Shown: in pieces, positions 435-28,609 of the stretch
Numbering within the stretch: the stretch's first letter is position 1
Layout of the letters: each line of letters begins with the position of its first letter
Source of the DNA: an uncultured bacterium
GTDB lineage: Bacteria; Chlamydiota; Chlamydiia; Chlamydiales; SM23-39
DNA: 64,000 nucleotides
Direction of reading: 5' to 3'
NCBI GenBank assembly: GCA_964626905.1
Contig: CAZVHA010000001.1
Span: 449,803 to 513,802 of the forward strand
Notes under the pieces: model-generated
Seen by the model: only the letters and a program-made list of their open reading frames with translations
Told to the model about the DNA's origin: nothing
Database searches by the model: none
Program-made: the position numbers and the translations under genes

Positions 435-706
435 TACTTGAAGTGTACTTTGAGAAAGCCTTCTGGCACAACCCCTAATTCGCGAATCAAGACCATTTCG
501 ATCCAAGCAGGATCATTTTGCGAGGCGATTCTCAGCTCGAGATCCTCTTTGGCCCTCTCAGCATCCCGCTTCTCCTCCAACATCTCCTCCAACCGAGAAG
601 TCAGCTGGCACATTTCCCCCTTTTTCACAGCGGAAAAATGGAAATGGGCAAATAGAGCTAGAGAACAAAAAAGAGCCACCCACCAATTTCGCATCCAAAA
701 TGACAT
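434..706 (-). CDS. Septum formation initiator (FtsB/DivIC-like) protein
   Basis: N-terminal TM, coiled coil, then DPAWIEMVLIRELGVVPEG. Confidence 0.65.
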   Translation of the reverse strand: MSFWMRNWWVALFCSLALFAHFHFSAVKKGEMCQLTSRLEEMLEEKRDAERAKEDLELRIASQNDPAWIEMVLIRELGVVPEGFLKVHFK

Positions 707-738
707 ACGATCCCTTCTCCAGCTATATAACGGATTTC

Positions 739-1305
739 CTAAATACTTGGGTAGGTGATTTCCATCTGCTTCATATACTTGCCTTTCCGGTCTGCGTAAG
801 AGACTTCACAAGGCTCATCTGCAACAAAGAAAAGGACCTGGGCAAGCCCCTCCCCTGCGTAAATCTTTGCGGGGAGCGGCGTCGTGTTGGAGATCTCGAG
901 GGTCACAAACCCTTCCCACTCGGGCTCGAAAGGGGTCACATTGACGATGATCCCGCAGCGAGCATAGGTCGATTTGCCGATGCAAAGGGTCAAGACATTT
1001 CTCGGGATCCGAAAATATTCGACACTTCTAGCGAGCGCAAAAGAATTGGGGGGAATGATGCAGGTCGCACCTTTGATGTCGACAAAGGAGTTCTTTTGAA
1101 AATTTTTCGGATCGACAATTGTGCTGTAGACATTGGTAAACACTTTAAATTCTTCGGCGACCCGTAGGTCATAGCCGTAACTAGAAAGGCCAAAGCTGAC
1201 CCGCTTTTGCCCGTTTTCTTCGCGTATTTGGTTTCCCTCAAAGGGCTCGATCATCTTGTGTTCAAGAGCCATTTTCCGGATCCATTTGTCTGAACGGAGT
1301 GTCAT
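739..1305 (-). CDS. dcd: dCTP deaminase
   Basis: [30 protein letters not shown]; likely start MTLRSDKWI. Confidence 0.95.
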
Positions 1306-14889: not shown

Positions 14890-15957
14890 ATGAATCTCTC
14901 CCTGGCATTTACTCGCATATTATTCATGATTCTCAGCATCTTTTTTATGACCGCTTACATGGTCTCAAGACCTGAAGGCCATGGTTGGATGAACATATCG
15001 ATTGGCATTGGATTGGGGCTCATTTTGGGTCTTTTATTGATCGGGTTTGGACGTCTTTTTTCCCGTTTCAATTTGCGCGCGTTTAACATTGCGATCATCG
15101 GTTTATTCGTCGGCTATTTAATGGGCCAAGCGCTTGTTTTGATCCTATCTGCCATTTTAACAATCAGCGCGGCGTCGATCCATCTTTCGCCCGATGTTTT
15201 AGAGATCGTAGAAATTGCCCTTTTTCTCTTTGGGATCTATCTCGGAACGTTGATGGCGATTCGCTCATCAGATGAGTTTTACATCAGTATCCCTTTCATC
15301 CGTTTGAGTGCTGGGGAGCAAAAGAAAAAAGAGATGCTCCTCGACCTATCGGTTTTAGCTGATGCCCGCATTCTCGACTTTGCCGCCTCAGGCATTGTCG
15401 ATCATCTGCTCGTCGTTCCCCGTTTTTTGATGAAAGAGCTCTACATGCTCTCCGAATCGCAGGATGAATCGACGAAGGGGCGAGCCAAACGCTCTTTGGA
15501 GACACTGAAAAAACTTGAGGGGCTAAAAGAGCTTGGCCTTCGATACAACGATACCGATTTCCCCGATGTAAGGGACCCAATGGCGAAAATGATCCACTTG
15601 GCGAGGCTGCTCGATGCCAACGTGATGACAGCAGATATTAGCCGTGTGCAGGTCTCCTCCCTTGAAGGGGTGCGGATCGTCAATCTCCATACCCTTTCCA
15701 ATGCTCTAAAACCGCTGATGCAAACGGGCGAACAGATCAAGATCAAAATTTTGCGCTTTGGCAAAGAGCCGCGCCAAGGAGTGGGGTATCTCGAAGATGG
15801 GACGATGGTGGTCGTCAACGGCGGAGGCGATTATTTGGGCAAGACCATCGACGCAGCAGTTGTATCTGTCAAACACACCACTTCGGGGAGAATGATTTTT
15901 TGCAATGCACCCGATGAAGAAGGGGGGCATCACCACTATGACGATGAAGGAGGATAG
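14890..15957 (+). CDS. PIN/TRAM domain membrane protein (YacL-like)
   Basis: N-terminal TMs, degenerate PIN (LLDLSVLADAR), GKEPRQGVGYLEDGTMVVV, GRMIF. Confidence 0.9.
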   Translation: MNLSLAFTRILFMILSIFFMTAYMVSRPEGHGWMNISIGIGLGLILGLLLIGFGRLFSRFNLRAFNIAIIGLFVGYLMGQALVLILSAILTISAASIHLSPDVLEIVEIALFLFGIYLGTLMAIRSSDEFYISIPFIRLSAGEQKKKEMLLDLSVLADARILDFAASGIVDHLLVVPRFLMKELYMLSESQDESTKGRAKRSLETLKKLEGLKELGLRYNDTDFPDVRDPMAKMIHLARLLDANVMTADISRVQVSSLEGVRIVNLHTLSNALKPLMQTGEQIKIKILRFGKEPRQGVGYLEDGTMVVVNGGGDYLGKTIDAAVVSVKHTTSGRMIFCNAPDEEGGHHHYDDEGG

Positions 15958-19771: not shown

Positions 19772-22552
19772 TTGCTCAAGTTAATTCATAGGGTATTTGG
19801 CCTTTATCAAGGGGAGGGTCCCCTTGCGATCCGCTTTGCCCGTTTGGCAGTTTTTTGGGCCTTTGGGAGCTCGTGTCTCGACACATTGAGCGATGGCCTC
19901 TTTTTGGAAAAAATTGGGGCGCAAAGTCTCCCTGGGGTCTACCTTTCGATCGCCCTTGGGATGATCGGCGTCTCCTCTTTGGTCCTCTACAGCCTAAGAT
20001 CGATGAGCCCGTACCGCATTTTGATGACTGCCCTCGCCATGGGGGTCCTCTTATGCCTTGTGGGGGCGACCCTCGTTAACGCCTCTCCCCCGATCTGGTT
20101 TTGGTATGCGATCAAGATCACCTCGCGGATGTTTTTTGCTGTGATGATCGCCTGTTCTTGGACCTTTACCGACCAGTATCACGATCTGCAAGATGCCAAG
20201 CGGATTTATTCGCTCTATAGCGCCGCCTATTTTTTAGGGACGATCATATCGGGGGTCGCGATCAATTTATTCCTCGATCGGATCGGTTTTTCAGGGCTCC
20301 TTGCTTTTTCTGCTGCATCGATTGGATTTGCGATGTGGGAGGCCAAGGGGATTGCTCACAAGGGCAAGGCGGTGCATGACGACACGGTGGAAGGGATCTT
20401 TTCAGCCAGCCGCGACTCCTTTGGATCGGTCGTGCGGCTCATCACCCGCTCGAGATTTACGATTTTGCTCCTCCTCATGAGTCTTTTTGTCCAGATCCTC
20501 ATCACGGTGACCGAATTCAACTACATGGAGTCTTTTGGAAGGTTTTTCAAAACGTCGGGCCAGGCGCTTGCACAAGGGGAAATCGCCGAATTTTTAGGAA
20601 AATGCCGAGCGATCATCTCTCTTTGCAACATCGTCTTTGGGGTCTTTTTCTATAGTCGGTTTGTGCGCAGAACGGGGATCAACAATGCCATTTTGATCAC
20701 TCCCCTCTTTTTTGCGGGGCTCTATTCGGGTTGGGTTTTTCAAGATGCGATGGGGTTTGCCATTTTGGCCCTTGTGGCCCTCGACGGGATCCTCTTTACG
20801 GTCGAAGACAATTGCTTTAACCTCCTGTCGAATGCGGTGCCGACGAAGCTGAAATCGAAAGTGAGGATCATCAACGACTCTTTCTTTGAGCCGATTGGGA
20901 TGCTCATCAGCTCGCTTCTCCTCTTTGCCATTTCCGGGGGGAGCCGCTGGCTCGGGCTTATTTTAACCCTTTTCTTCCTCATTTTGGCCCTTGCGATTCG
21001 AACCCTTTATTCCCAAGCGATCATGCTCAATTTGAAGGACAACGCTCTCCATTTTGAAAGGAGATTGAAAGGGTGGCTCGCCTCCCTTTCGAGGCGCGAT
21101 CAAAAAGAGGCCAAAAAAGATATTTTAGAGGCTCTCAGGTCCCCTTCTGAAGAGACGCAACTGCTCGGAATCGAATCGCTTTTACAGCTGGGCGACGGCC
21201 TTCCCCAAATTTTGTCGATTGCCCGCAGATTTAGCACCATCTCCAAAATCCAGTTTTTGCGCCTCTTGGAAAACTCCCCTTTTTCTCAAGAGGCGAGGGT
21301 GATTGAAATGGTCGATAGCTGGACCGATGAAAATGAGTCTCCGGAGCTCGCCAAGTGGGCCTATCTCTACCTTGCGAAAAAGGGGCTCCACCACCCCGAA
21401 AAGGCGGAAGACGATCTGGACGATCCCGATCTCTTTTTAAGGGCAGCGGCCATTTTGACGATGAAAAAATCGCTCGCCAATACGTCGATCGACTACGCCG
21501 CCCTCAACCGGACGATTGCGAGCAAGAAGCTCGATCTGCTCTTAAAATCGGAACGGGTCGATGAGATCAGCATGGGACTCGATATTTTGGCTGAAGAGAA
21601 CACCGTTGAGGCGGCGCAGCGGGCACTCCCCTTCCTCTCTCACGAGGCGATCATCGTCAAAAGGGCCTCTGCCCGCTGCATCGCCAAAATGGCAGACCGG
21701 CGCCTTTCTCGCCACGCGACGCAGCTCATTGAAGAGTGTGAAACAGCCCGAGACAATCTCGTCCGCCTCTCTATTTTGGAGGGGCTCGGGAAAATTGCCG
21801 ACTCGACGACGACGAAAGAAATTTTACTCGCAAGCGTCCATTTTCGCCCCAATGAAAGGCGCAAAACGGAAGAGATCATCGCCCAGATGGGACTCAAGAT
21901 CGTCCCCTTGCTCATCAGTTTAACCAAAGATATCGCCCTTCCCGAAAGGGCTCGGCTCCTCGCAGGAAAAATTTTAGGGAGACTCGCCCTGCCCCAATTG
22001 CAGGCAAATCTGATCGACATCCTCGACATCGAAATCGAAAGGGCCTATTTTTATTTCTACTTTGGCCATACGATCCAGCAGCAATATCCCCTTCACGATC
22101 TCGAAATGCTCCAAAGCGCCCTTTTGAGCGGCTACCAATCAGTGATCGACTTCATCATCCACCTGCTCGGGGCTGCCGGCTCTTTGGAAGACCCCGAAAT
22201 GCTCGTGAGAGCCCTCCATAGTCGCAATGAAAAAGTCCACTCCCACGCCGTTGAGAGCTTGGAAAAGACGTGCGATCTCCGGATTTTCAAGCTGATTGCC
22301 CCTCTTGTCGATGATTTACCTTTGGAGGAAAAAATGGCGGCCTGTCTGAGATGGCAAGGAGATTATCCGAAGTTGAGCCTGTTTGAGTTGCTCGGAAAAC
22401 TGGAGCAATCGCCGACCCTATTTGATCGGATTGTCGCAGTGAAACTCAAAGCTAAGCTGCAAATGCCTAACTGGCGCCAACAATTGAGAGAGCAGATGAA
22501 GCTCTCCGACGAAGCCTTTCACCAATTTGCCTACGAGTTACTAGAAACATGA
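19772..22552 (+). CDS. NTT/TLC (ADP/ATP carrier-like) MFS domain fused to HEAT repeats
   Basis: About 12 TM N-terminal half (LFLEKIGAQSLP, DLQDAKRIYSL) and a helical-repeat C-terminal half; chlamydial CT234-like position. Confidence 0.8.
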   Translation: MLKLIHRVFGLYQGEGPLAIRFARLAVFWAFGSSCLDTLSDGLFLEKIGAQSLPGVYLSIALGMIGVSSLVLYSLRSMSPYRILMTALAMGVLLCLVGATLVNASPPIWFWYAIKITSRMFFAVMIACSWTFTDQYHDLQDAKRIYSLYSAAYFLGTIISGVAINLFLDRIGFSGLLAFSAASIGFAMWEAKGIAHKGKAVHDDTVEGIFSASRDSFGSVVRLITRSRFTILLLLMSLFVQILITVTEFNYMESFGRFFKTSGQALAQGEIAEFLGKCRAIISLCNIVFGVFFYSRFVRRTGINNAILITPLFFAGLYSGWVFQDAMGFAILALVALDGILFTVEDNCFNLLSNAVPTKLKSKVRIINDSFFEPIGMLISSLLLFAISGGSRWLGLILTLFFLILALAIRTLYSQAIMLNLKDNALHFERRLKGWLASLSRRDQKEAKKDILEALRSPSEETQLLGIESLLQLGDGLPQILSIARRFSTISKIQFLRLLENSPFSQEARVIEMVDSWTDENESPELAKWAYLYLAKKGLHHPEKAEDDLDDPDLFLRAAAILTMKKSLANTSIDYAALNRTIASKKLDLLLKSERVDEISMGLDILAEENTVEAAQRALPFLSHEAIIVKRASARCIAKMADRRLSRHATQLIEECETARDNLVRLSILEGLGKIADSTTTKEILLASVHFRPNERRKTEEIIAQMGLKIVPLLISLTKDIALPERARLLAGKILGRLALPQLQANLIDILDIEIERAYFYFYFGHTIQQQYPLHDLEMLQSALLSGYQSVIDFIIHLLGAAGSLEDPEMLVRALHSRNEKVHSHAVESLEKTCDLRIFKLIAPLVDDLPLEEKMAACLRWQGDYPKLSLFELLGKLEQSPTLFDRIVAVKLKAKLQMPNWRQQLREQMKLSDEAFHQFAYELLET

Positions 22553-22986: not shown

Positions 22987-24266
22987 AAATCCGAACGCGC
23001 ATGCTCCTTTTCCTCTTGCCAACTCTCGTCTTGAGCATCGCCCTCATCTCGACCCTGCTCGCGATCAACTGGTACAAAGAGATTGTCGAGGGGTTTCGGA
23101 CCCGCCTCAAGTCGGCCGTTGTCGCAACAGCCCTGTCGGGCGGCACGTCGAGCGAAGGGCGTGAGCAACTGCGCGATCAGCTCCAGGTCACAGCCCTCTA
23201 TTTTGTCCCGATCCACTCCCCCGAAATTGAGACCATTTCAAAAAAAATTCACATCACTCCGATCTATAAAAGCAAAGAGGGGACAAAAGTGATGACCGGT
23301 TACGCCCCCATTTTTGATCCCAACGGATATCTGATGGGACTCATGGCAGCCGATATCAATGTGAGTCTTATCGATAAAAAATTTCAGGAGAGTCTGCTCC
23401 TCATCCTCCTTTTTGCAGGCCTTACGATCGCCATCGTCGTCGTCACCTTGATTCCGCTCGCCAATAAAATCTCAAAACCGGTCCAAAGATTGAACAACTC
23501 GGCCCTCGCCATCGCGGCGGGGCAATACGGCGAATCGATCCAGGTGAGTGGCCCAAAAGAGATCGTCGAACTTGCAAACACCCTAAACACGATGAGCGAG
23601 TGCCTCCACGAAAACATCAACCGCCTCAAGGAAAATTCTCTTTTGCGTGAACGAATGTACGGCGAATACGAGTGCGCAATGCTTTTGCAACACATGATGC
23701 TCCAAAAAAATATTGACGATTGTAGATCGGATACAATTGCCGCAAAATCGATCACCTTCTTTTCCGAAAGCCCCAAGGGGCTACTGCTCGACTTCCCGAA
23801 AACGGAGAGCCCTACCCTCTTTCAGATCCAAATGATCGAGGCCGAAGAGGAGGGGTTCGAGGGGATGTACCAACTCCTCACCCAATACAAACTCTTTAAA
23901 AATAAAGAATTTCCTTTCATCGGCACCTCGTTGTCGTTCGACCAAACTACCTCCACCCTCCAAATCAAAGGGCCCCATACCCCCTTTTGCTGGTCGCTCG
24001 ACGAGAAGAAATTTTTAGAACCCACGCAAGGGGTTTTGAAGGTCGATTCAGGCGACTACCTTTTCCTCTTCAACCAAGGACTCTCTAATCTCTATAAAGG
24101 ACCCAAAGAGCTCTCAGAGCTCCTCTCCAAAGTGCTTAAGGTTTTTGCCTCTGAAGGGCTGGAGACAACAACGGCCATGCTCCAAAAAGAACTCTCCTTT
24201 GCCACCAAACGGATATCCCTAAAAGAGGATATCCACCTCCTCTGCTTTCAAATACTGAATATATAA
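22983..24266 (+). CDS. Membrane sensor with HAMP and degenerate SpoIIE/PP2C (RsbU-like) domain
   Basis: Two TMs; HAMP ISKPVQRL...EIVELANTLNTM; GDYLFLFNQGL and KEDIHLLCF resemble GD..LYTDG and DDIT. Confidence 0.7.
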   Translation: MKIRTRMLLFLLPTLVLSIALISTLLAINWYKEIVEGFRTRLKSAVVATALSGGTSSEGREQLRDQLQVTALYFVPIHSPEIETISKKIHITPIYKSKEGTKVMTGYAPIFDPNGYLMGLMAADINVSLIDKKFQESLLLILLFAGLTIAIVVVTLIPLANKISKPVQRLNNSALAIAAGQYGESIQVSGPKEIVELANTLNTMSECLHENINRLKENSLLRERMYGEYECAMLLQHMMLQKNIDDCRSDTIAAKSITFFSESPKGLLLDFPKTESPTLFQIQMIEAEEEGFEGMYQLLTQYKLFKNKEFPFIGTSLSFDQTTSTLQIKGPHTPFCWSLDEKKFLEPTQGVLKVDSGDYLFLFNQGLSNLYKGPKELSELLSKVLKVFASEGLETTTAMLQKELSFATKRISLKEDIHLLCFQILNI

Positions 24267-24349
24267 TAAATTTTTTACATACTAAAACATTTAATTAAAA
24301 TATAGAACAGTATATAATTTAGTATATTTAAAAATAAATTGAGGATAAA

Positions 24350-25177
24350 ATGAACCAAATAAATGGGCTTCGTCCGATAAATACAATTGTTTCCCATGGC
24401 CTAGTGAGGGGCGATCTGCAGGAAGTCCCTAAGTGCGGGATCTGTTTTGATACACAAAAAAAAGTGAACTGTATTGGCTCAGATCGAATTGTCTGCCACA
24501 GGGCTCCCCCTTCTGAAAGAAATCCAGAGAATATAATCTATCATCCCTTTCATAAAACCTGCTTAGGCGAGTGGCTTATAACCCCAAATAGCAAAAATAA
24601 ATGCCCAAATTGCCAAACCATTCTTAGTAACGAAAGCATTGAGCAAGAGTTGGCTCTATCCCCAATGGAAAAAGGGGTGCAGATGGCAGAAAATTTACTC
24701 AAATGGGCTGTCAGAGGGGCTTTCTATGGCGCATGGTCGTGGGCAGCCACATACACACTCATAGGCCATCAAACCGATCTAGGAGACTTTTCAAGTAATA
24801 TTATAATCTCAGCGGTGACGAGCTCAATTATATGCCCATTGATAGCAAAAAGTATTGCAGCTAACCCAGACTTTGTGGGTAAGCTTCGTTACGCCGCTAT
24901 TCCAATTGCGGCTATTTTGTGGTCCTTTCCTTCCCAGGAGACAGGAATTTCTTCCCAGGAGACAGGAATTCAAGAGACAAACATTGATGCTCGCCTTGCC
25001 TTACGAAGTCTCGTAAAAGCCGTCCCCCTAATGCTGGGTCGAAGTGGAATGGGGATGGTGATGCCAGAGCTATCCAATTTTGAACGGGAGCTTGACAACT
25101 GGTCTTGGAAAGCAGTCCCAGGCCTGGCCTTGGGCGTTGCTTCGCGTATGCTATTCAAGTGGTGGGGTTCGAGCTAA
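24350..25177 (+). CDS. RING-H2 zinc finger multi-TM protein, paralog 1
   Basis: C29xxC32...C49H50...H65xxH68xxC71xxxW75...C85xxC88, then hydrophobic segments. Confidence 0.85.
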   Translation: MNQINGLRPINTIVSHGLVRGDLQEVPKCGICFDTQKKVNCIGSDRIVCHRAPPSERNPENIIYHPFHKTCLGEWLITPNSKNKCPNCQTILSNESIEQELALSPMEKGVQMAENLLKWAVRGAFYGAWSWAATYTLIGHQTDLGDFSSNIIISAVTSSIICPLIAKSIAANPDFVGKLRYAAIPIAAILWSFPSQETGISSQETGIQETNIDARLALRSLVKAVPLMLGRSGMGMVMPELSNFERELDNWSWKAVPGLALGVASRMLFKWWGSS

Positions 25178-26327
25178 TCTCTAAGACTAAACAGTATATA
25201 ATCTTAAAAACAGATTAAGGATAAAATGAATCAAGTAAATGAGCTTCCGACAAACACAATTGTCCCCTACGACCTAGTGAGGGGCGATCTGCAGGAAGTC
25301 CCGGAGTGCGGGATCTGCCTTGATACACAAAAAAAAGTGAACTGTATTGGCTTAGATCGAATGATCTGCCACAGGGCTCCCCCTTCTGAAAGAAATCCAG
25401 GGAATACACTCTATCATTACTTTCATAAAACCTGCTTAGGCGAGTGGCTTATAACCCCACATAGCGAGAACAAATGCCCAAATTGCGAAACTGTTCTTAG
25501 TAATGAAAGCATTGAGGAGGAGTTATCGCCATCCCTAATGGAAAAAGGGGTGCGGGTGGCAGAAAATTTCCTCAGAAGGGCTGTTAGAGGGGCTTTCTAT
25601 GGCGCATGGTCTTGGGCAGCCGTATACACACTCATGGACCATCATCGAACCGATCTAGGGGACCTCCTCTTACAGGATATTATAAAGTCAGCGGTGCTGA
25701 GCTCAATTGTGTTCCCATTGTTAGGGAGGGATATTAGAGCTAACCCAGCCCTTTTTTTTAAGTCTTCTTGCGCCGCTTTTTCGATTCAGGGTAGTTTGGA
25801 ATATTACCTTTCCTCTTTCCAAGAAACAAACACTACTGCTCGCATATGCTTCCAAACTTTCCTTAGAATCCTCCCCCTAATGCTGAGTCGAGATGTAGTG
25901 GGGATGGCGATCCCAGAAATGTTCGCAACAGCCGAGCTTTTAGAACGGAAGATTGACAACTGGTCTTGGAAAGCGGTTCCAGGCCTGGCCTTGGGCGTTG
26001 CTTCGCGTATGCTATTCAAGTGGTGGGGTTCGAGCTAATCTCTAAGACTAAACAGTATATAATCTTAAAAACAGATTAAGGATAAAATGAATCAAGTAAA
26101 TGAGCTTCCGACAAACACAATTGTCCCCTACGACCTAGTGAGGGGCGATCTGCAGGAAGTCCCGGAGTGCGGGATCTGCCTTGATACACAAAAAAAAGTG
26201 AACTGTATTGGCTTAGATCGAATGATCTGCCACAGGGCTCCCCCTTCTGAAAGAAATCCAGGGAATACACTCTATCATTACTTTCATAAAACCTGCTTAG
26301 GCGAGTGGCTTATAACCCCACATAGCG
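25118..26327 (+). repeat. ~350-bp identical direct repeat (25118-25466 = 25979-26327), period 861 bp
   Basis: Covers a gene 3' end, the intergenic promoter (ACAGTATATAAT) and the next RING-coding start. Confidence 0.9.
25226..26038 (+). CDS. RING-H2 zinc finger multi-TM protein, paralog 2
   Basis: CGIC...HYFHKTCLGEWL...CPNC plus TMs. Confidence 0.85.
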   Translation: MNQVNELPTNTIVPYDLVRGDLQEVPECGICLDTQKKVNCIGLDRMICHRAPPSERNPGNTLYHYFHKTCLGEWLITPHSENKCPNCETVLSNESIEEELSPSLMEKGVRVAENFLRRAVRGAFYGAWSWAAVYTLMDHHRTDLGDLLLQDIIKSAVLSSIVFPLLGRDIRANPALFFKSSCAAFSIQGSLEYYLSSFQETNTTARICFQTFLRILPLMLSRDVVGMAIPEMFATAELLERKIDNWSWKAVPGLALGVASRMLFKWWGSS

Positions 26328-26899
26328 GGAACAAATGCCCAAATTGCGAAACGATTCTTAGTAATGAAAGCATTGCGCAGGAGTTAGCGCTATCCCCAAT
26401 GGAAAAAGGCATAGGGAAAGGGGTGCAGATGGCAGAACATTTACTTAGAAGGGCTGCTAAAGGGGCTTTCTATGGCGCATGGTCGTGGGCAGCCGTATAC
26501 ACACTCATGGGCCATCAAACCGATCTAGGAGACTTCTCAGAGAGTACTATAAGATCAACAACGATGCACTTAACTATGCTCCCATGGTTAGCGAAAGGTT
26601 TGAGAGCTCCCCCAGATCTTTCTTTTCTGCTTTGTTACGTCTCTGTTTTTCCGATTCTGGGTAGTTTGGAGTATTGGCTTAGCCTTTTCCAAAAGACAGA
26701 AAATGCTGTTCGCAACGGTATCTTACAAACTTGCTTTAGCGCCATCCCCCTAATACTGAGTCGAGATGTAATGGAGGCGATAAGACCAGAGCTATCCGAT
26801 TTAGAACAAAAGATTTACAACTGGTCTTGGAAAGCAATCCCAGGCCTGGCCTTAGGCGTTGCTTCGCGTATGCTATCCAAGTGGTGGGGTTCGAGCTAA
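26087..26899 (+). CDS. RING-H2 zinc finger multi-TM protein, paralog 3
   Basis: CGIC...HYFHKTCLGEWL...CPNC plus TMs. Confidence 0.85.
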   Translation: MNQVNELPTNTIVPYDLVRGDLQEVPECGICLDTQKKVNCIGLDRMICHRAPPSERNPGNTLYHYFHKTCLGEWLITPHSGNKCPNCETILSNESIAQELALSPMEKGIGKGVQMAEHLLRRAAKGAFYGAWSWAAVYTLMGHQTDLGDFSESTIRSTTMHLTMLPWLAKGLRAPPDLSFLLCYVSVFPILGSLEYWLSLFQKTENAVRNGILQTCFSAIPLILSRDVMEAIRPELSDLEQKIYNWSWKAIPGLALGVASRMLSKWWGSS

Positions 26900-26913
26900 C
26901 CTCATGGGACATC

Positions 26914-26944
26914 TTTTGTCCCATTAAATATGCATGGGACAAAA
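26914..26944. terminator. Hairpin closing the RING array
   Basis: TTTTGTCCCAT-9-ATGGGACAAAA; no clear U-tract. Confidence 0.4.
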
Positions 26945-27057
26945 CCCCAATTCTTTTCATCCCGAAAAACTATAACTAATAATAATTATTTTACTTCATA
27001 ATTAATCATAAATTAACTATAATGTTAAGGAAAAGGTAAATAATAGGAGATAATAAA

Positions 27058-27537
27058 ATGAATTCAATTAATTACGAAGACGTCACAAGACTATTGAAAG
27101 TAATGGACCGTTCCGTAGCAAAGGAAGCTAAAAACGCCCAAAGAGTAACCCGCCTTACCACAAAGGACAAGGAACCAAAACCATTAGATAAAATCTCTTT
27201 TATTTGTGACAATACATTAAAAGAAGAAATTATCGATAAATCAACTATACTTGAAAGGATTCTCAAGCTGTCCAATAAATATATAAAGAAATACGAAAAC
27301 AAAAACGAAGAGTTTTTAGAGCTAAAGGGGATATTGGACGACAAGCTGAAAGAACTCCGCCTCTTGCGCAACAATGAGACCCTTACTCTTGATGTTGAAG
27401 AAGAAGAAGGTTGTGCTGATAAGATCAGCAAGCGGCTGAATACGACAACAAGCACCCTCTACACGGTTGCTGTATCTATTCTCACGGTCACCGCTTTCGG
27501 TCTCGGCTACCTTGCTAATAGCCCGGCGACAAAATAG
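27058..27537 (+). CDS. Hypothetical coiled-coil protein with C-terminal TM anchor
   Basis: AT-rich ORF with TATAAT and AGGAG upstream; LYTVAVSILTVTAFGLGYLA near the C-terminus. Confidence 0.8.
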   Translation: MNSINYEDVTRLLKVMDRSVAKEAKNAQRVTRLTTKDKEPKPLDKISFICDNTLKEEIIDKSTILERILKLSNKYIKKYENKNEEFLELKGILDDKLKELRLLRNNETLTLDVEEEEGCADKISKRLNTTTSTLYTVAVSILTVTAFGLGYLANSPATK

Positions 27538-27552
27538 TCCCAAAAAAAGAGA

Positions 27553-27575
27553 GCCAGCAAAGGAATTTTGCTGGC
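27553..27575 (-). terminator. Intrinsic terminator after acpP, possibly bidirectional
   Basis: GCCAGCAAA/TTTGCTGGC stem with an adjacent A-run. Confidence 0.6.
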
Positions 27576-27585
27576 CCGATTTTCT

Positions 27586-27825
27586 TTAAGCGTTCACTTT
27601 TCTCTTTTCGATGTAGTCGACCACGTCTCCCACAGTCTTGAGTTTTTCCGCATCTTCTTCAGAGATCTCAAAACCGAAACGCTCTTCAAAAGTCATGATT
27701 AGCTCAGTCAAATCGAGAGAATCGGCATTCAGATCCTCCACAAACGACTTTTGGAGCGTTACGTCGACGACATCAACACCTAACTGTTCGACGATGATGT
27801 CAATCACTTCTTTTTGTATTGTCAT
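27586..27825 (-). CDS. acpP: Acyl carrier protein
   Basis: DLNADSLD. Confidence 0.97.
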
Positions 27826-27853
27826 AATTTCCCTTTAAGGTTTTCCAAAAAAT

Positions 27854-28609
27854 TTACATCACCATTCCGCCATCGACTGTGAGCACTTGCCCGGTCACGT
27901 ACCCGGCAAGATCACTGGCTAAAAACAGTGCAGCATGAGCGATATCGCGTGGATTGCCGATACGGCTCATCGGTATTTTCGACAAAATGGCCTCTTTCAC
28001 TGCCGGGGCAAGCAGATCGGTCATCTGGGTCTCAATGTAGCCCGGCGCAATGCAATTGACCCGAATATTTCGGCTTGCGAGCTCTTTCGCAAGCGACTTC
28101 GTAAATCCAATCATCCCCGATTTCGATGCGGCGTAATTCACCTGTCCCGCATTTCCGGTAAGTCCGATCACCGAGGTAATATTAATGATATTTCCACTGC
28201 GCGCCTTCATCATCGGGCGGCTCATCGCTTTACAAGTGTGATAGACCGACTTCAAATTGACGTCCAGGACGAGATTCCAATCCTCTTCGCTCATTCTCAT
28301 GAGCAAATTGTCCCTCGTAATCCCCGCATTATTCACCAAAATATCGATCTTCCCAAACTCTTGGATGATTTTCCCAAAGGCCTCTTCGACTTCGGCAGCC
28401 TTCGAGACGTTGGCGATAGAGGAGAGCACCTTTTGCCCCGGATCCAATCGGCACGCCTCAATCTCTTTTACAGCAAGCGCCGCCCTCTCAGCATTCGTCC
28501 CTAAAATCGCAACATCTGCCCCATGCTCTGCAAATAGACAGGCAATCGCCTTTCCAATCCCCGCAGTCCCCCCGGTAATGAGCGCCGTTTTTCCCTTAAG
28601 TAGCTGCAT
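27854..28609 (-). CDS. fabG: 3-oxoacyl-ACP reductase
   Basis: TGGTAGIG, NNAGITRD, YAASK. Confidence 0.96.
   Translation of the reverse strand: MQLLKGKTALITGGTAGIGKAIACLFAEHGADVAILGTNAERAALAVKEIEACRLDPGQKVLSSIANVSKAAEVEEAFGKIIQEFGKIDILVNNAGITRDNLLMRMSEEDWNLVLDVNLKSVYHTCKAMSRPMMKARSGNIINITSVIGLTGNAGQVNYAASKSGMIGFTKSLAKELASRNIRVNCIAPGYIETQMTDLLAPAVKEAILSKIPMSRIGNPRDIAHAALFLASDLAGYVTGQVLTVDGGMVM

Follow-up and report, generated by a model that had tools for sequence, protein, structure and literature searches.

The gene array

In a 64,000-nucleotide stretch of contig CAZVHA010000001.1 from an uncultured member of the Chlamydiales (hereafter, the window), three intact open reading frames (ORFs) lie in tandem on the forward strand, and each is predicted to encode a protein with an N-terminal RING-type zinc finger followed by several hydrophobic helices. 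The genes, here named R1, R2 and R3, occupy positions 24350-25177 (275 amino acids), 25226-26038 (270 amino acids) and 26087-26899 (270 amino acids), exactly where an earlier reading of the sequence alone (the original prediction) had placed three tandem paralogs. The R2 and R3 proteins are 67% and 65% identical to R1 respectively and share 72% identity with each other. The genome that carries them comprises 1.72 Mb in 11 contigs and is 94.8% complete.

At the DNA level the array has a period of 861-873 bp. The copies are 82-98% identical in their 5' third and in the last ~180 bp, with the exception of the R1/R2 tail (68%), and 68-77% identical in the middle of the genes. The R1/R2 and R2/R3 spacers are 48 bp each and identical to one another. 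Upstream of every ATG stands GTATATAAT together with a ribosome-binding site of the form AAGGA or GAGGA; the spacers before R2 and R3 hold GTATATAAT and AAGGA, while R1 has the same elements within a spacer of 12% GC. Since the 48-bp spacers are identical, GTATATAAT is part of the duplicated unit. The original prediction had assigned each gene a TATAAT of its own; the motif does precede each start codon, but its presence there is a consequence of duplication and does not in itself indicate three promoters. The sole sigma-70-like -35/-10 match 5' of the array (TTTACA-16-TAAAAT, 24274-24301, forward strand) lies before R1 in the 12% GC spacer, and the -35/-10 scan of the region returned 7 promoter-like sites against 6.0 +/- 2.1 in shuffled sequences, that is, no excess. 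The AT-rich island that had been described was also found, in a milder form: the array has a GC content of 45.7% (rank 36 among 246 windows) where the mean for the whole stretch is 48.1 +/- 2.3%, the GC content at third codon positions is 0.45-0.49 in the array genes against 0.52-0.64 in the neighbouring genes, and the spacers flanking the array have 12% and 27% GC.

The assembly of the repeats was examined using contigs from four groundwater-metagenome runs of one study, possibly the source of the assembly, at an identity of at least 99%. The unique middle of each copy is covered at a depth similar to that of the flanks (52-63 against 53-54 in run X1) and the 5' part common to R2 and R3 at about double this depth (112-113 in run X1). 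No single metagenome piece among the contigs of these runs bridges the whole array, and the bin 26078-26211, a stretch near-identical to the R2 copy, is uncovered in two runs. An assembly artefact was dropped as an explanation in view of the flank-like depth of the copy middles and the roughly twofold depth of the shared R2/R3 5' part. Eukaryotic contamination was dropped likewise, as the genes lie within a 586-kb contig with conserved chlamydial synteny and are preceded by ribosome-binding sites.

On the opposite strand, two identical ORFs of 64 amino acids (25215-25409 and 26076-26270) run across the 5' ends of R2 and R3. In all likelihood they are not genes but arise from the near-identity of the duplicated DNA.

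The RING-type finger

All three proteins carry the motif C-x2-C-x16-C-H-x14-H-x2-H-x2-C-x3-W-x9-C-P-x-C, with the finger core encoded at 24434-24613 in R1 (C29 to C88), 25307-25486 in R2 (C28 to C87) and 26168-26347 in R3 (C28 to C87), all on the forward strand. In a family of 10 sequences, from which a profile was built, the residues C28, C31, H49, H64, H67, C70, W74, C84, P85 and C87 (R2 numbering) are invariant, and I30 is conserved in 90%. The eight putative zinc ligands (C28, C31, H49, H64, H67, C70, C84 and C87) are thus retained in 10/10 members, and seven of them in 46/46 sequences of a wider alignment. The original prediction had written the motif with a Cys-His pair before the loop; the pair is present in R1-R3, but the Cys preceding H49 varies in the family and H49 does not, so that there are exactly eight candidate ligands and the third is a His and not a Cys (C2H3C3). 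His49 and H64 are separated by 14 residues (50-63 in R2, the inserted hairpin loop), in place of the canonical C3-x(1-3)-H4 spacing.

The residues at which well-studied RING fingers contact ubiquitin-conjugating enzymes (E2s) are an Ile, a Trp and a Pro, and all three are present in R1-R3: Ile at C1+2, Trp at C6+4 and Pro at C7+1 (I30, W74 and P85 in R2). The linchpin residue that follows the last Cys is Q in R1 and E in both R2 and R3, as the original prediction had pointed out, and so is basic in none of the copies.

The resemblance of the motif to RING fingers, as claimed from the sequence alone, is far beyond chance. A search of the family profile against PDB gave 65 matches at E <= 1. Of these, 60 were listed: 59 chains of RING/U-box-type ligases or of their partner subunits and, in last place, the nucleoporin NUP192 (E 0.4). 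The best matches are APC11 (1.7e-7), RNF126 (2.3e-5), AMFR (3e-5), Arkadia (1e-4) and synoviolin (2.4e-4). The Pfam family zf-rbx1 was matched by 10/10 family members at E <= 0.1 (best 1.2e-8), and an NCBIfam scan of R1-R3 returned nothing meaningful.

R2 served as the basis of two structure models, one of the full-length protein and one of the RING part only. In the RING-only AlphaFold model, built with 46 sequences, the block-mean predicted local distance difference test score (pLDDT) is 77-93 over residues 21-100. When this model was searched against 48,161 chains, the best 50 rows were all RING/U-box-type zinc-finger domains, headed by RNF4 (Z 7.1, root-mean-square deviation 2.4 A over 59 residues), and all rows shown by Foldseek were RING ligase entries with a probability of up to 1.0. 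A check by structure prediction, which had been proposed together with the claim, was therefore in its favour to the extent that a predicted model allows. Residues 46-51 and 62-67 are modelled as the two strands of a beta-hairpin, in which H49 would stand opposite H64 in regular register. The 14-residue insertion would thereby lengthen the central hairpin of the RING fold, and the two His would stand in for the usual C-x-H turn. By sequence profile and predicted fold, then, the N-terminal domain of R1-R3 is a RING-type finger.

Such a finger might nevertheless serve within the bacterium itself, as a zinc-binding module unrelated to ubiquitin in an internal membrane protein, for instance a regulatory or anti-sigma-like module or an inner-membrane adaptor. 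Zinc-binding membrane regulators share the layout in which a finger is N-terminal to hydrophobic helices, and R1-R3 have this layout and no Sec signal peptide. All significant sequence and fold matches, however, are to the RING/U-box domains of ubiquitin ligases, and the conserved residues that are not ligands are exactly those at the E2-contact positions. The genes are moreover species-specific, duplicated and fast-evolving and are situated in a hypervariable slot (see below), unlike housekeeping regulators, and no sigma factor gene is adjacent; the anti-sigma form of this explanation was dropped on the latter ground and on that of the E2 contacts. The lack of a match between R1-R3 and any curated bacterial family is neutral in this respect. 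We consider an internal role of this kind to be decidedly unlikely.

The helical C-terminal part

The C-terminal ~170 residues are all-helical in the model. By the Wimley-White octanol scale, four to five segments of 19 residues are favourable in each copy; in R2 they lie near residues 119-137, 147-165, 203-221 and 246-264. They would form two pairs of helices of moderate hydrophobicity (about 119-137/147-165 and 203-221/246-264), and this region, residues 119-264 approximately, corresponds to positions 25580-26017 on the forward strand and includes the fast-evolving middle of the protein. The first helix is conserved in metagenomic relatives as RGAFYGAWSWAA, which contains an RGAFYG (GxxxG) motif, and the last helix is conserved across them as the WSWKAVPGLALGVASR motif. 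A search of the ESM Atlas with the C-terminal 171 residues gave no usable match.

Divergence between the copies

The three parts of the genes differ in how they have diverged. In the RING third, the ratio of nonsynonymous to synonymous substitution rates (dN/dS) is 0.46 for R1 against R2 or R3. Between R2 and R3 this third has hardly diverged at all (dS 0.017), as would follow from gene conversion or a very recent duplication. For the helical middle, dS values of 0.20-0.25 and dN/dS values of 1.43, 1.76 and 1.81 were obtained, with a nonsynonymous excess at Fisher p = 0.23, 0.026 and 0.041 (uncorrected). The RING third and the C-terminal helix are kept between the paralogs and in metagenomic relatives at 23-40% identity.

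Over the whole gene dN/dS is about 1 (0.95-1.31), as would be expected of recent duplicates drifting to loss, in which the tandem copies are a neutral by-product and the helical part has no maintained function. The fast divergence of the middle and the hydrophobicity of R1-R3, which is below that of their relatives, are in keeping with such drift, and so is the confinement of the array to this genome: a search with R2 gave a full-length match in 0/13 genomes of the same genus, and the family profile gave weaker matches to the RING part in 4 of the 6 genomes sampled and a full-length match in none. Against this, the frame is unbroken in each of the three genes and the start contexts are conserved, no copy has lost any of the eight putative ligands, and the RING third has the low dN/dS given above and is preserved, with the C-terminal helix, in distant relatives. 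Neutral decay thus appears to us the least probable of the explanations considered; it ranks, with the bacterial-internal role, as less likely than both the E2 trap discussed below and a host-directed ligase.

Relatives in chlamydiae and metagenomes

When 1.84 billion representative proteins were searched exhaustively with the profile, 10 matches at E <= 1e-3 were obtained, made up of one protein of the window, seven full-length relatives, one canonical RING protein and one repetitive 734-amino-acid protein, the last of which is probably spurious. A word-indexed search added two further relatives for a total of nine, all of them from metagenome assemblies and in clusters of one or two sequences.

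RING-like profile matches were obtained in 103/400 chlamydial genomes, a lower bound, with one genome unscored; they were present in 86/334 high-quality genomes and in 68/212 genera. The premise of the original prediction that RING fingers are rare in bacteria hence does not apply to this phylum. From the loci returned for the best matches, 36 RING ORFs were taken for comparison. At ligands 3 and 4, 28 of them have a His followed by 5-21 inserted residues, seven have the canonical C-x-H and one has a Cys with an insertion, the His-type share being biased upward by the choice of best-scoring loci and by a profile built on His-type sequences. The E2-contact positions hold Ile in 34, Trp in 35 and Pro in 34. 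The finger is N-terminal in 32/36, and a hydrophobic segment reaches a Kyte-Doolittle mean of >= 1.6 in 24 and of >= 2.0 in 17. Several of the ORFs are tandem pairs; in at least 12 relatives the profile alignment continues through the first hydrophobic helices, and two His-type relatives score 31.1 and 30.2 bits across the full zf-RING_2 model, above the Pfam cut-off of 27.3 bits. Judged by sequence, the trio is a divergent, species-specific subfamily of a widespread and essentially undescribed chlamydial family that combines a His-type RING finger with membrane helices.

The linchpin is R or K in 32/36 of these wider relatives, whereas R1-R3 have Q/E/E and their two nearest relatives, P0015 and P0005, have Q. 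Together with the full conservation of the E2-contact residues, this would suit a pseudo-ligase, or E2 trap, that docks a host E2 through the Ile, Trp and Pro and does not discharge ubiquitin, sequestering or relocalising E2s at a membrane instead. Many active RING ligases, however, have no Arg linchpin, and the purifying selection on the RING third would fit a ligase and a trap alike and does not discriminate between them. We hold a trap to be unlikely, although it is the foremost of the alternatives to an active ligase.

The clearest Inc-like RING architecture seen (that is, resembling chlamydial inclusion membrane, or Inc, proteins) was in a tandem pair of another genome (G016, locus L006, 1192-1758 and 1894-2424, both on the reverse strand). 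The pair encodes proteins of 188 and 176 amino acids with a His-plus-insertion RING finger, a linker rich in Ser and Pro and a two-lobed segment of strong hydrophobicity (Kyte-Doolittle mean of up to 2.96).

A fourth RING gene was observed in the genome of R1-R3 itself, outside the window, at about 388287-388787 of contig G000:C1 (L054, 1288-1788) on the reverse strand. Its product of 166 amino acids has a canonical C-x-H RING-H2 finger whose linchpin is Arg (zf-RING_2, 49 bits). About 90 residues of unknown type come after the finger, and nearby there is a short ORF that looks helix-turn-helix-like.

Comparison with known systems

In the sections of their paper drawn on here, Horner et al. 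(2025) characterised SneRING (SNE_A12920) of Simkania negevensis and noted the neighbouring SNE_A08700 and SNE_A08690 as uncharacterised RING-like candidates with 'a big insertion after the 3rd Zn ligand' (PMC12591485). As depicted there, these two are, like the trio, neighbouring paralogs with relatives in other Chlamydiia and poor scores against standard RING profiles (PMC12591485). The trio likewise has an insertion, of 14 residues after H49, in a finger that spans residues 28-87 of 270. SNE_A08700 was reported with 'eight canonical ligands' (PMC12591485), whereas ligand 3 of the trio is a His. In every comparable feature the published description of SNE_A08700 matches the trio family, the comparison being one of descriptions and not of sequences; neither hydrophobic helices in the C-terminal part nor the breadth of the family's distribution is mentioned in those sections.

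SneRING itself is, as portrayed in the same sections, a small chlamydial protein whose N-terminus, as in the trio, carries a zinc-type RING with atypical ligands, but differs in its NxxC/His substitutions, in having no insertion and in a C-terminal alpha/beta domain without hydrophobic helices (PMC12591485). By the authors' description it belongs to a different family (PMC12591485). It is reported to be active with UbcH5b and UBE2T and to be partly membrane-associated (PMC12591485, PMC13720258). A 2026 review, in the passages available, treats SnRING as the only zinc-type RING effector and as 'the latest addition' (PMC13720258), so that the literature on bacterial zinc-type RING ligases would seem to be only recent. 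In the portion of Domman et al. (2014) that was available, RING/U-box domains in Chlamydiae were placed, by the profiles used, only in the Neochlamydia family NEX1b (PMC4209131). The chlamydial pangenome paper PMC8242063 does not mention RING, ubiquitin, U-box or F-box, and in our search of the literature on chlamydiae we came across no account of a RING family that is membrane-anchored or of the His type.

The best sequence matches of the trio are eukaryotic RING-H2 proteins (APC11/RBX1, RNF126, AMFR/gp78, synoviolin/HRD1 and Arkadia), with which it shares H-x2-H-x2-C-x3-W ... C-P-x-C and the Ile/Trp/Pro contacts to E2; the stretch WL-x-TP-x-S...CPxC is close to that of yeast APC11. Unlike them, the trio has a His and a 14-residue hairpin in place of the C-x-H turn, and an acidic or neutral linchpin. 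In gp78 and HRD1, the membrane spans are N-terminal to the finger, an order which is reversed in the trio.

The N-terminal finger followed by membrane helices had suggested a likeness to the MARCH ligases and to viral K3/K5. The analogy is one of topology only, and a putative one: the trio has four to five octanol-favourable segments per copy, of which at most one passes a Kyte-Doolittle mean of 1.6. The finger itself is of the RING-H2 kind: its ligands are C2H3C3 against C4HC3 in MARCH and K3/K5, RINGv scored 13.2-15.6 bits on R1-R3 against a cut-off of 21.6 bits, the family profile matched viral K3 (1vyx) at an E-value of only 0.39, and no MARCH or K3 entry was present among the best 50 rows of the fold search. 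In MARCH and K3/K5 the choice of substrate is made by the membrane-embedded part, and a similar choice of target would fit the fast-evolving helical middle of the trio.

Inc proteins and the trio are alike in being small, lineage-specific and often tandemly duplicated, with no Sec signal; the paired hydrophobic helices of Inc proteins may have a counterpart in the putative helix pairs of the trio, although the trio copies are less hydrophobic than typical Inc domains. To our knowledge a RING finger has not been reported in any Inc protein, and a literature search found no such case.

Proposed role of R1-R3

On the basis of the profiles and models, we give an even chance to the proposal that R1-R3 are host-directed, membrane-anchored RING ligase effectors that are exported from the bacterium. 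The N-terminal finger would bind a host E2, with zinc site 1 formed by C28, C31, H67 and C70 and zinc site 2 by H49, H64, C84 and C87. In the second site the tight C-x-H turn would be replaced by two His that face each other across an extended beta-hairpin, owing to the 14-residue insertion. The C-terminal four to five hydrophobic helices would anchor the protein in a membrane. Export would most likely be by the chlamydial type III system and would be followed by insertion into the inclusion or a host membrane, with the finger toward the host cytosol, where it could bring E2~ubiquitin to nearby membrane proteins. The fast-diverging helical middle may decide which target or which membrane is chosen, a role that falls to the membrane-spanning parts in MARCH/K3/K5. 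Zinc ligands, membrane insertion, secretion, host target and ligase activity are in this scheme properties that we infer.

The genome of R1-R3 has one SctV/FlhA-type export-gate gene, which, like the TLC-type transporter gene near the array (see below), is in keeping with a chlamydial origin. Scans of this genome (94.8% complete) gave no match to the UQ_con (E2) and ubiquitin families, for which the control genomes gave no clear signal, and none to Peptidase_C48 and OTU; as the controls were also matchless for two of the families, these scans do not establish absence. With no E2 match in the genome, any E2 partner would have to come from the host.

Several results weigh against an active, membrane-anchored ligase. 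Activation of E2~ubiquitin may be weak or lost, given the Q/E/E linchpin where most relatives have R or K. R1-R3 taken singly fall below every Pfam RING cut-off, the best score being 22.5 bits against 25 for zf-ANAPC11. The structural Z scores are 5-7, and the search tool calls values below 8 common for small domains, for which reason the fold evidence was weighed together with the sequence evidence and not alone; Foldseek gave no match at E <= 1e-3 with either the full-length or the RING-only model. The helical model of the C-terminal part is of low confidence (pLDDT about 50-55), and a soluble helical bundle is an alternative for this part. On the Kyte-Doolittle scale, a 19-residue mean of 1.6 is reached by one helix in R1 and one in R2 and by none in R3, the maxima being 1.91, 1.61 and 1.55 respectively. 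Lastly, the significance of the dN/dS above 1 in the middle is marginal, and relaxed constraint may account for part of the elevated ratio.

The hydrophobic helices that had been seen after the finger are thus borne out as four to five octanol-favourable segments per copy, but their hydrophobicity is moderate. Membrane insertion of R1-R3 remains plausible, and in our estimate fairly likely, yet is to be put less strongly than the plain description of the proteins as membrane-anchored would have it. The same may be said of the secreted ligase as a whole: the RING finger by profile and fold and the intact Ile/Trp/Pro speak for it, whereas the original wording on the ligands, the rarity of RING fingers in bacteria, the likeness to MARCH and the membrane anchor had to be corrected.

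More tentatively, and with the balance of our judgement somewhat against it, the trio may be the tip of a large undescribed class of Inc-like membrane proteins. These would bear a 'histidine-hairpin' RING (C2H3C3) and would place a ligase that recruits host E2s in inclusion or host membranes, with the membrane part under an arms race. Such proteins would be a counterpart of K3/K5/MARCH and the first membrane-integrated bacterial RING E3 ubiquitin ligases.

If the proteins are active, environmental chlamydiae would make wide use of membrane-anchored RING ligases, and the RING family would gain a new zinc-ligand geometry. The relatives would then also offer natural variants (R/K against Q/E linchpins, hairpins of 5-21 residues and divergent membrane parts) for the study of E2 activation and substrate choice. 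The trio family further marks a hypervariable locus and candidate effectors that are overlooked by standard domain scans.

Genomic context of the array

The array lies downstream of a gene for a HAMP-domain protein, which is present in 13/13 genomes of the same genus and which has a cNMP-binding gene directly 5' of it wherever the fetched DNA reaches. Eight same-genus loci have acpP in the fetched flank. In these, unrelated short ORFs, one or two per locus, come next after the HAMP gene, acpP and fabG then lie on the opposite strand, and none of the eight has a RING gene in this slot. Among 13 slot ORFs, seven carry a hydrophobic anchor C-terminal to a coiled-coil-like body, and BLAST similarity was found in two pairs only. 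As the slot ORFs of the genus are mostly dissimilar, the interval between the HAMP gene and acpP is a hypervariable slot. In the window the resident of this slot is ORF159 (27058-27537, forward strand), whose coiled-coil product has a single hydrophobic anchor at the C-terminus; by position ORF159 corresponds to the tail-anchored slot ORF in most same-genus genomes examined and is part of the context of the array, not of the array. An NCBIfam scan of ORF159 returned nothing meaningful. The slot ORFs, ORF159 included, may be a fast-evolving family of tail-anchored effectors.

Compared with these loci, the RING array is inserted after the HAMP gene and before the tail-anchored resident of the slot, and the break in the synteny from the cNMP-binding gene to acpP that the original prediction had noticed is thereby supported. 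No tRNA gene was found between positions 15000 and 35000, no Rfam family in 23500-28000, and no inverted repeats, as a mark of a mobile element, flanking the array. Between ORF159 and the convergent acpP lies a terminator-like hairpin (27542-27586) that is bidirectional.

In one genome of the genus (G007, locus L045, about 495-1130, reverse strand) the slot holds two short ORFs of 114 and 93 amino acids, which we take to resemble an antitoxin-toxin pair of the HigA/HigB type. Farther upstream in the window, at 19772-22552 on the forward strand, is a gene for a 926-amino-acid protein with a match to the TLC ATP/ADP-transporter family (22.7 against a cut-off of 21 bits) and C-terminal HEAT repeats; it is conserved 5' of the cNMP-binding and HAMP genes in those same-genus loci that reach that far. 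Downstream, at 46184-46804 on the forward strand, lies an ORF of 206 amino acids that has an Inc-like look, being acidic at its N-terminus and having a long hydrophobic stretch that is paired; it is located where the GC content of the window is lowest (about 40% near 44751).

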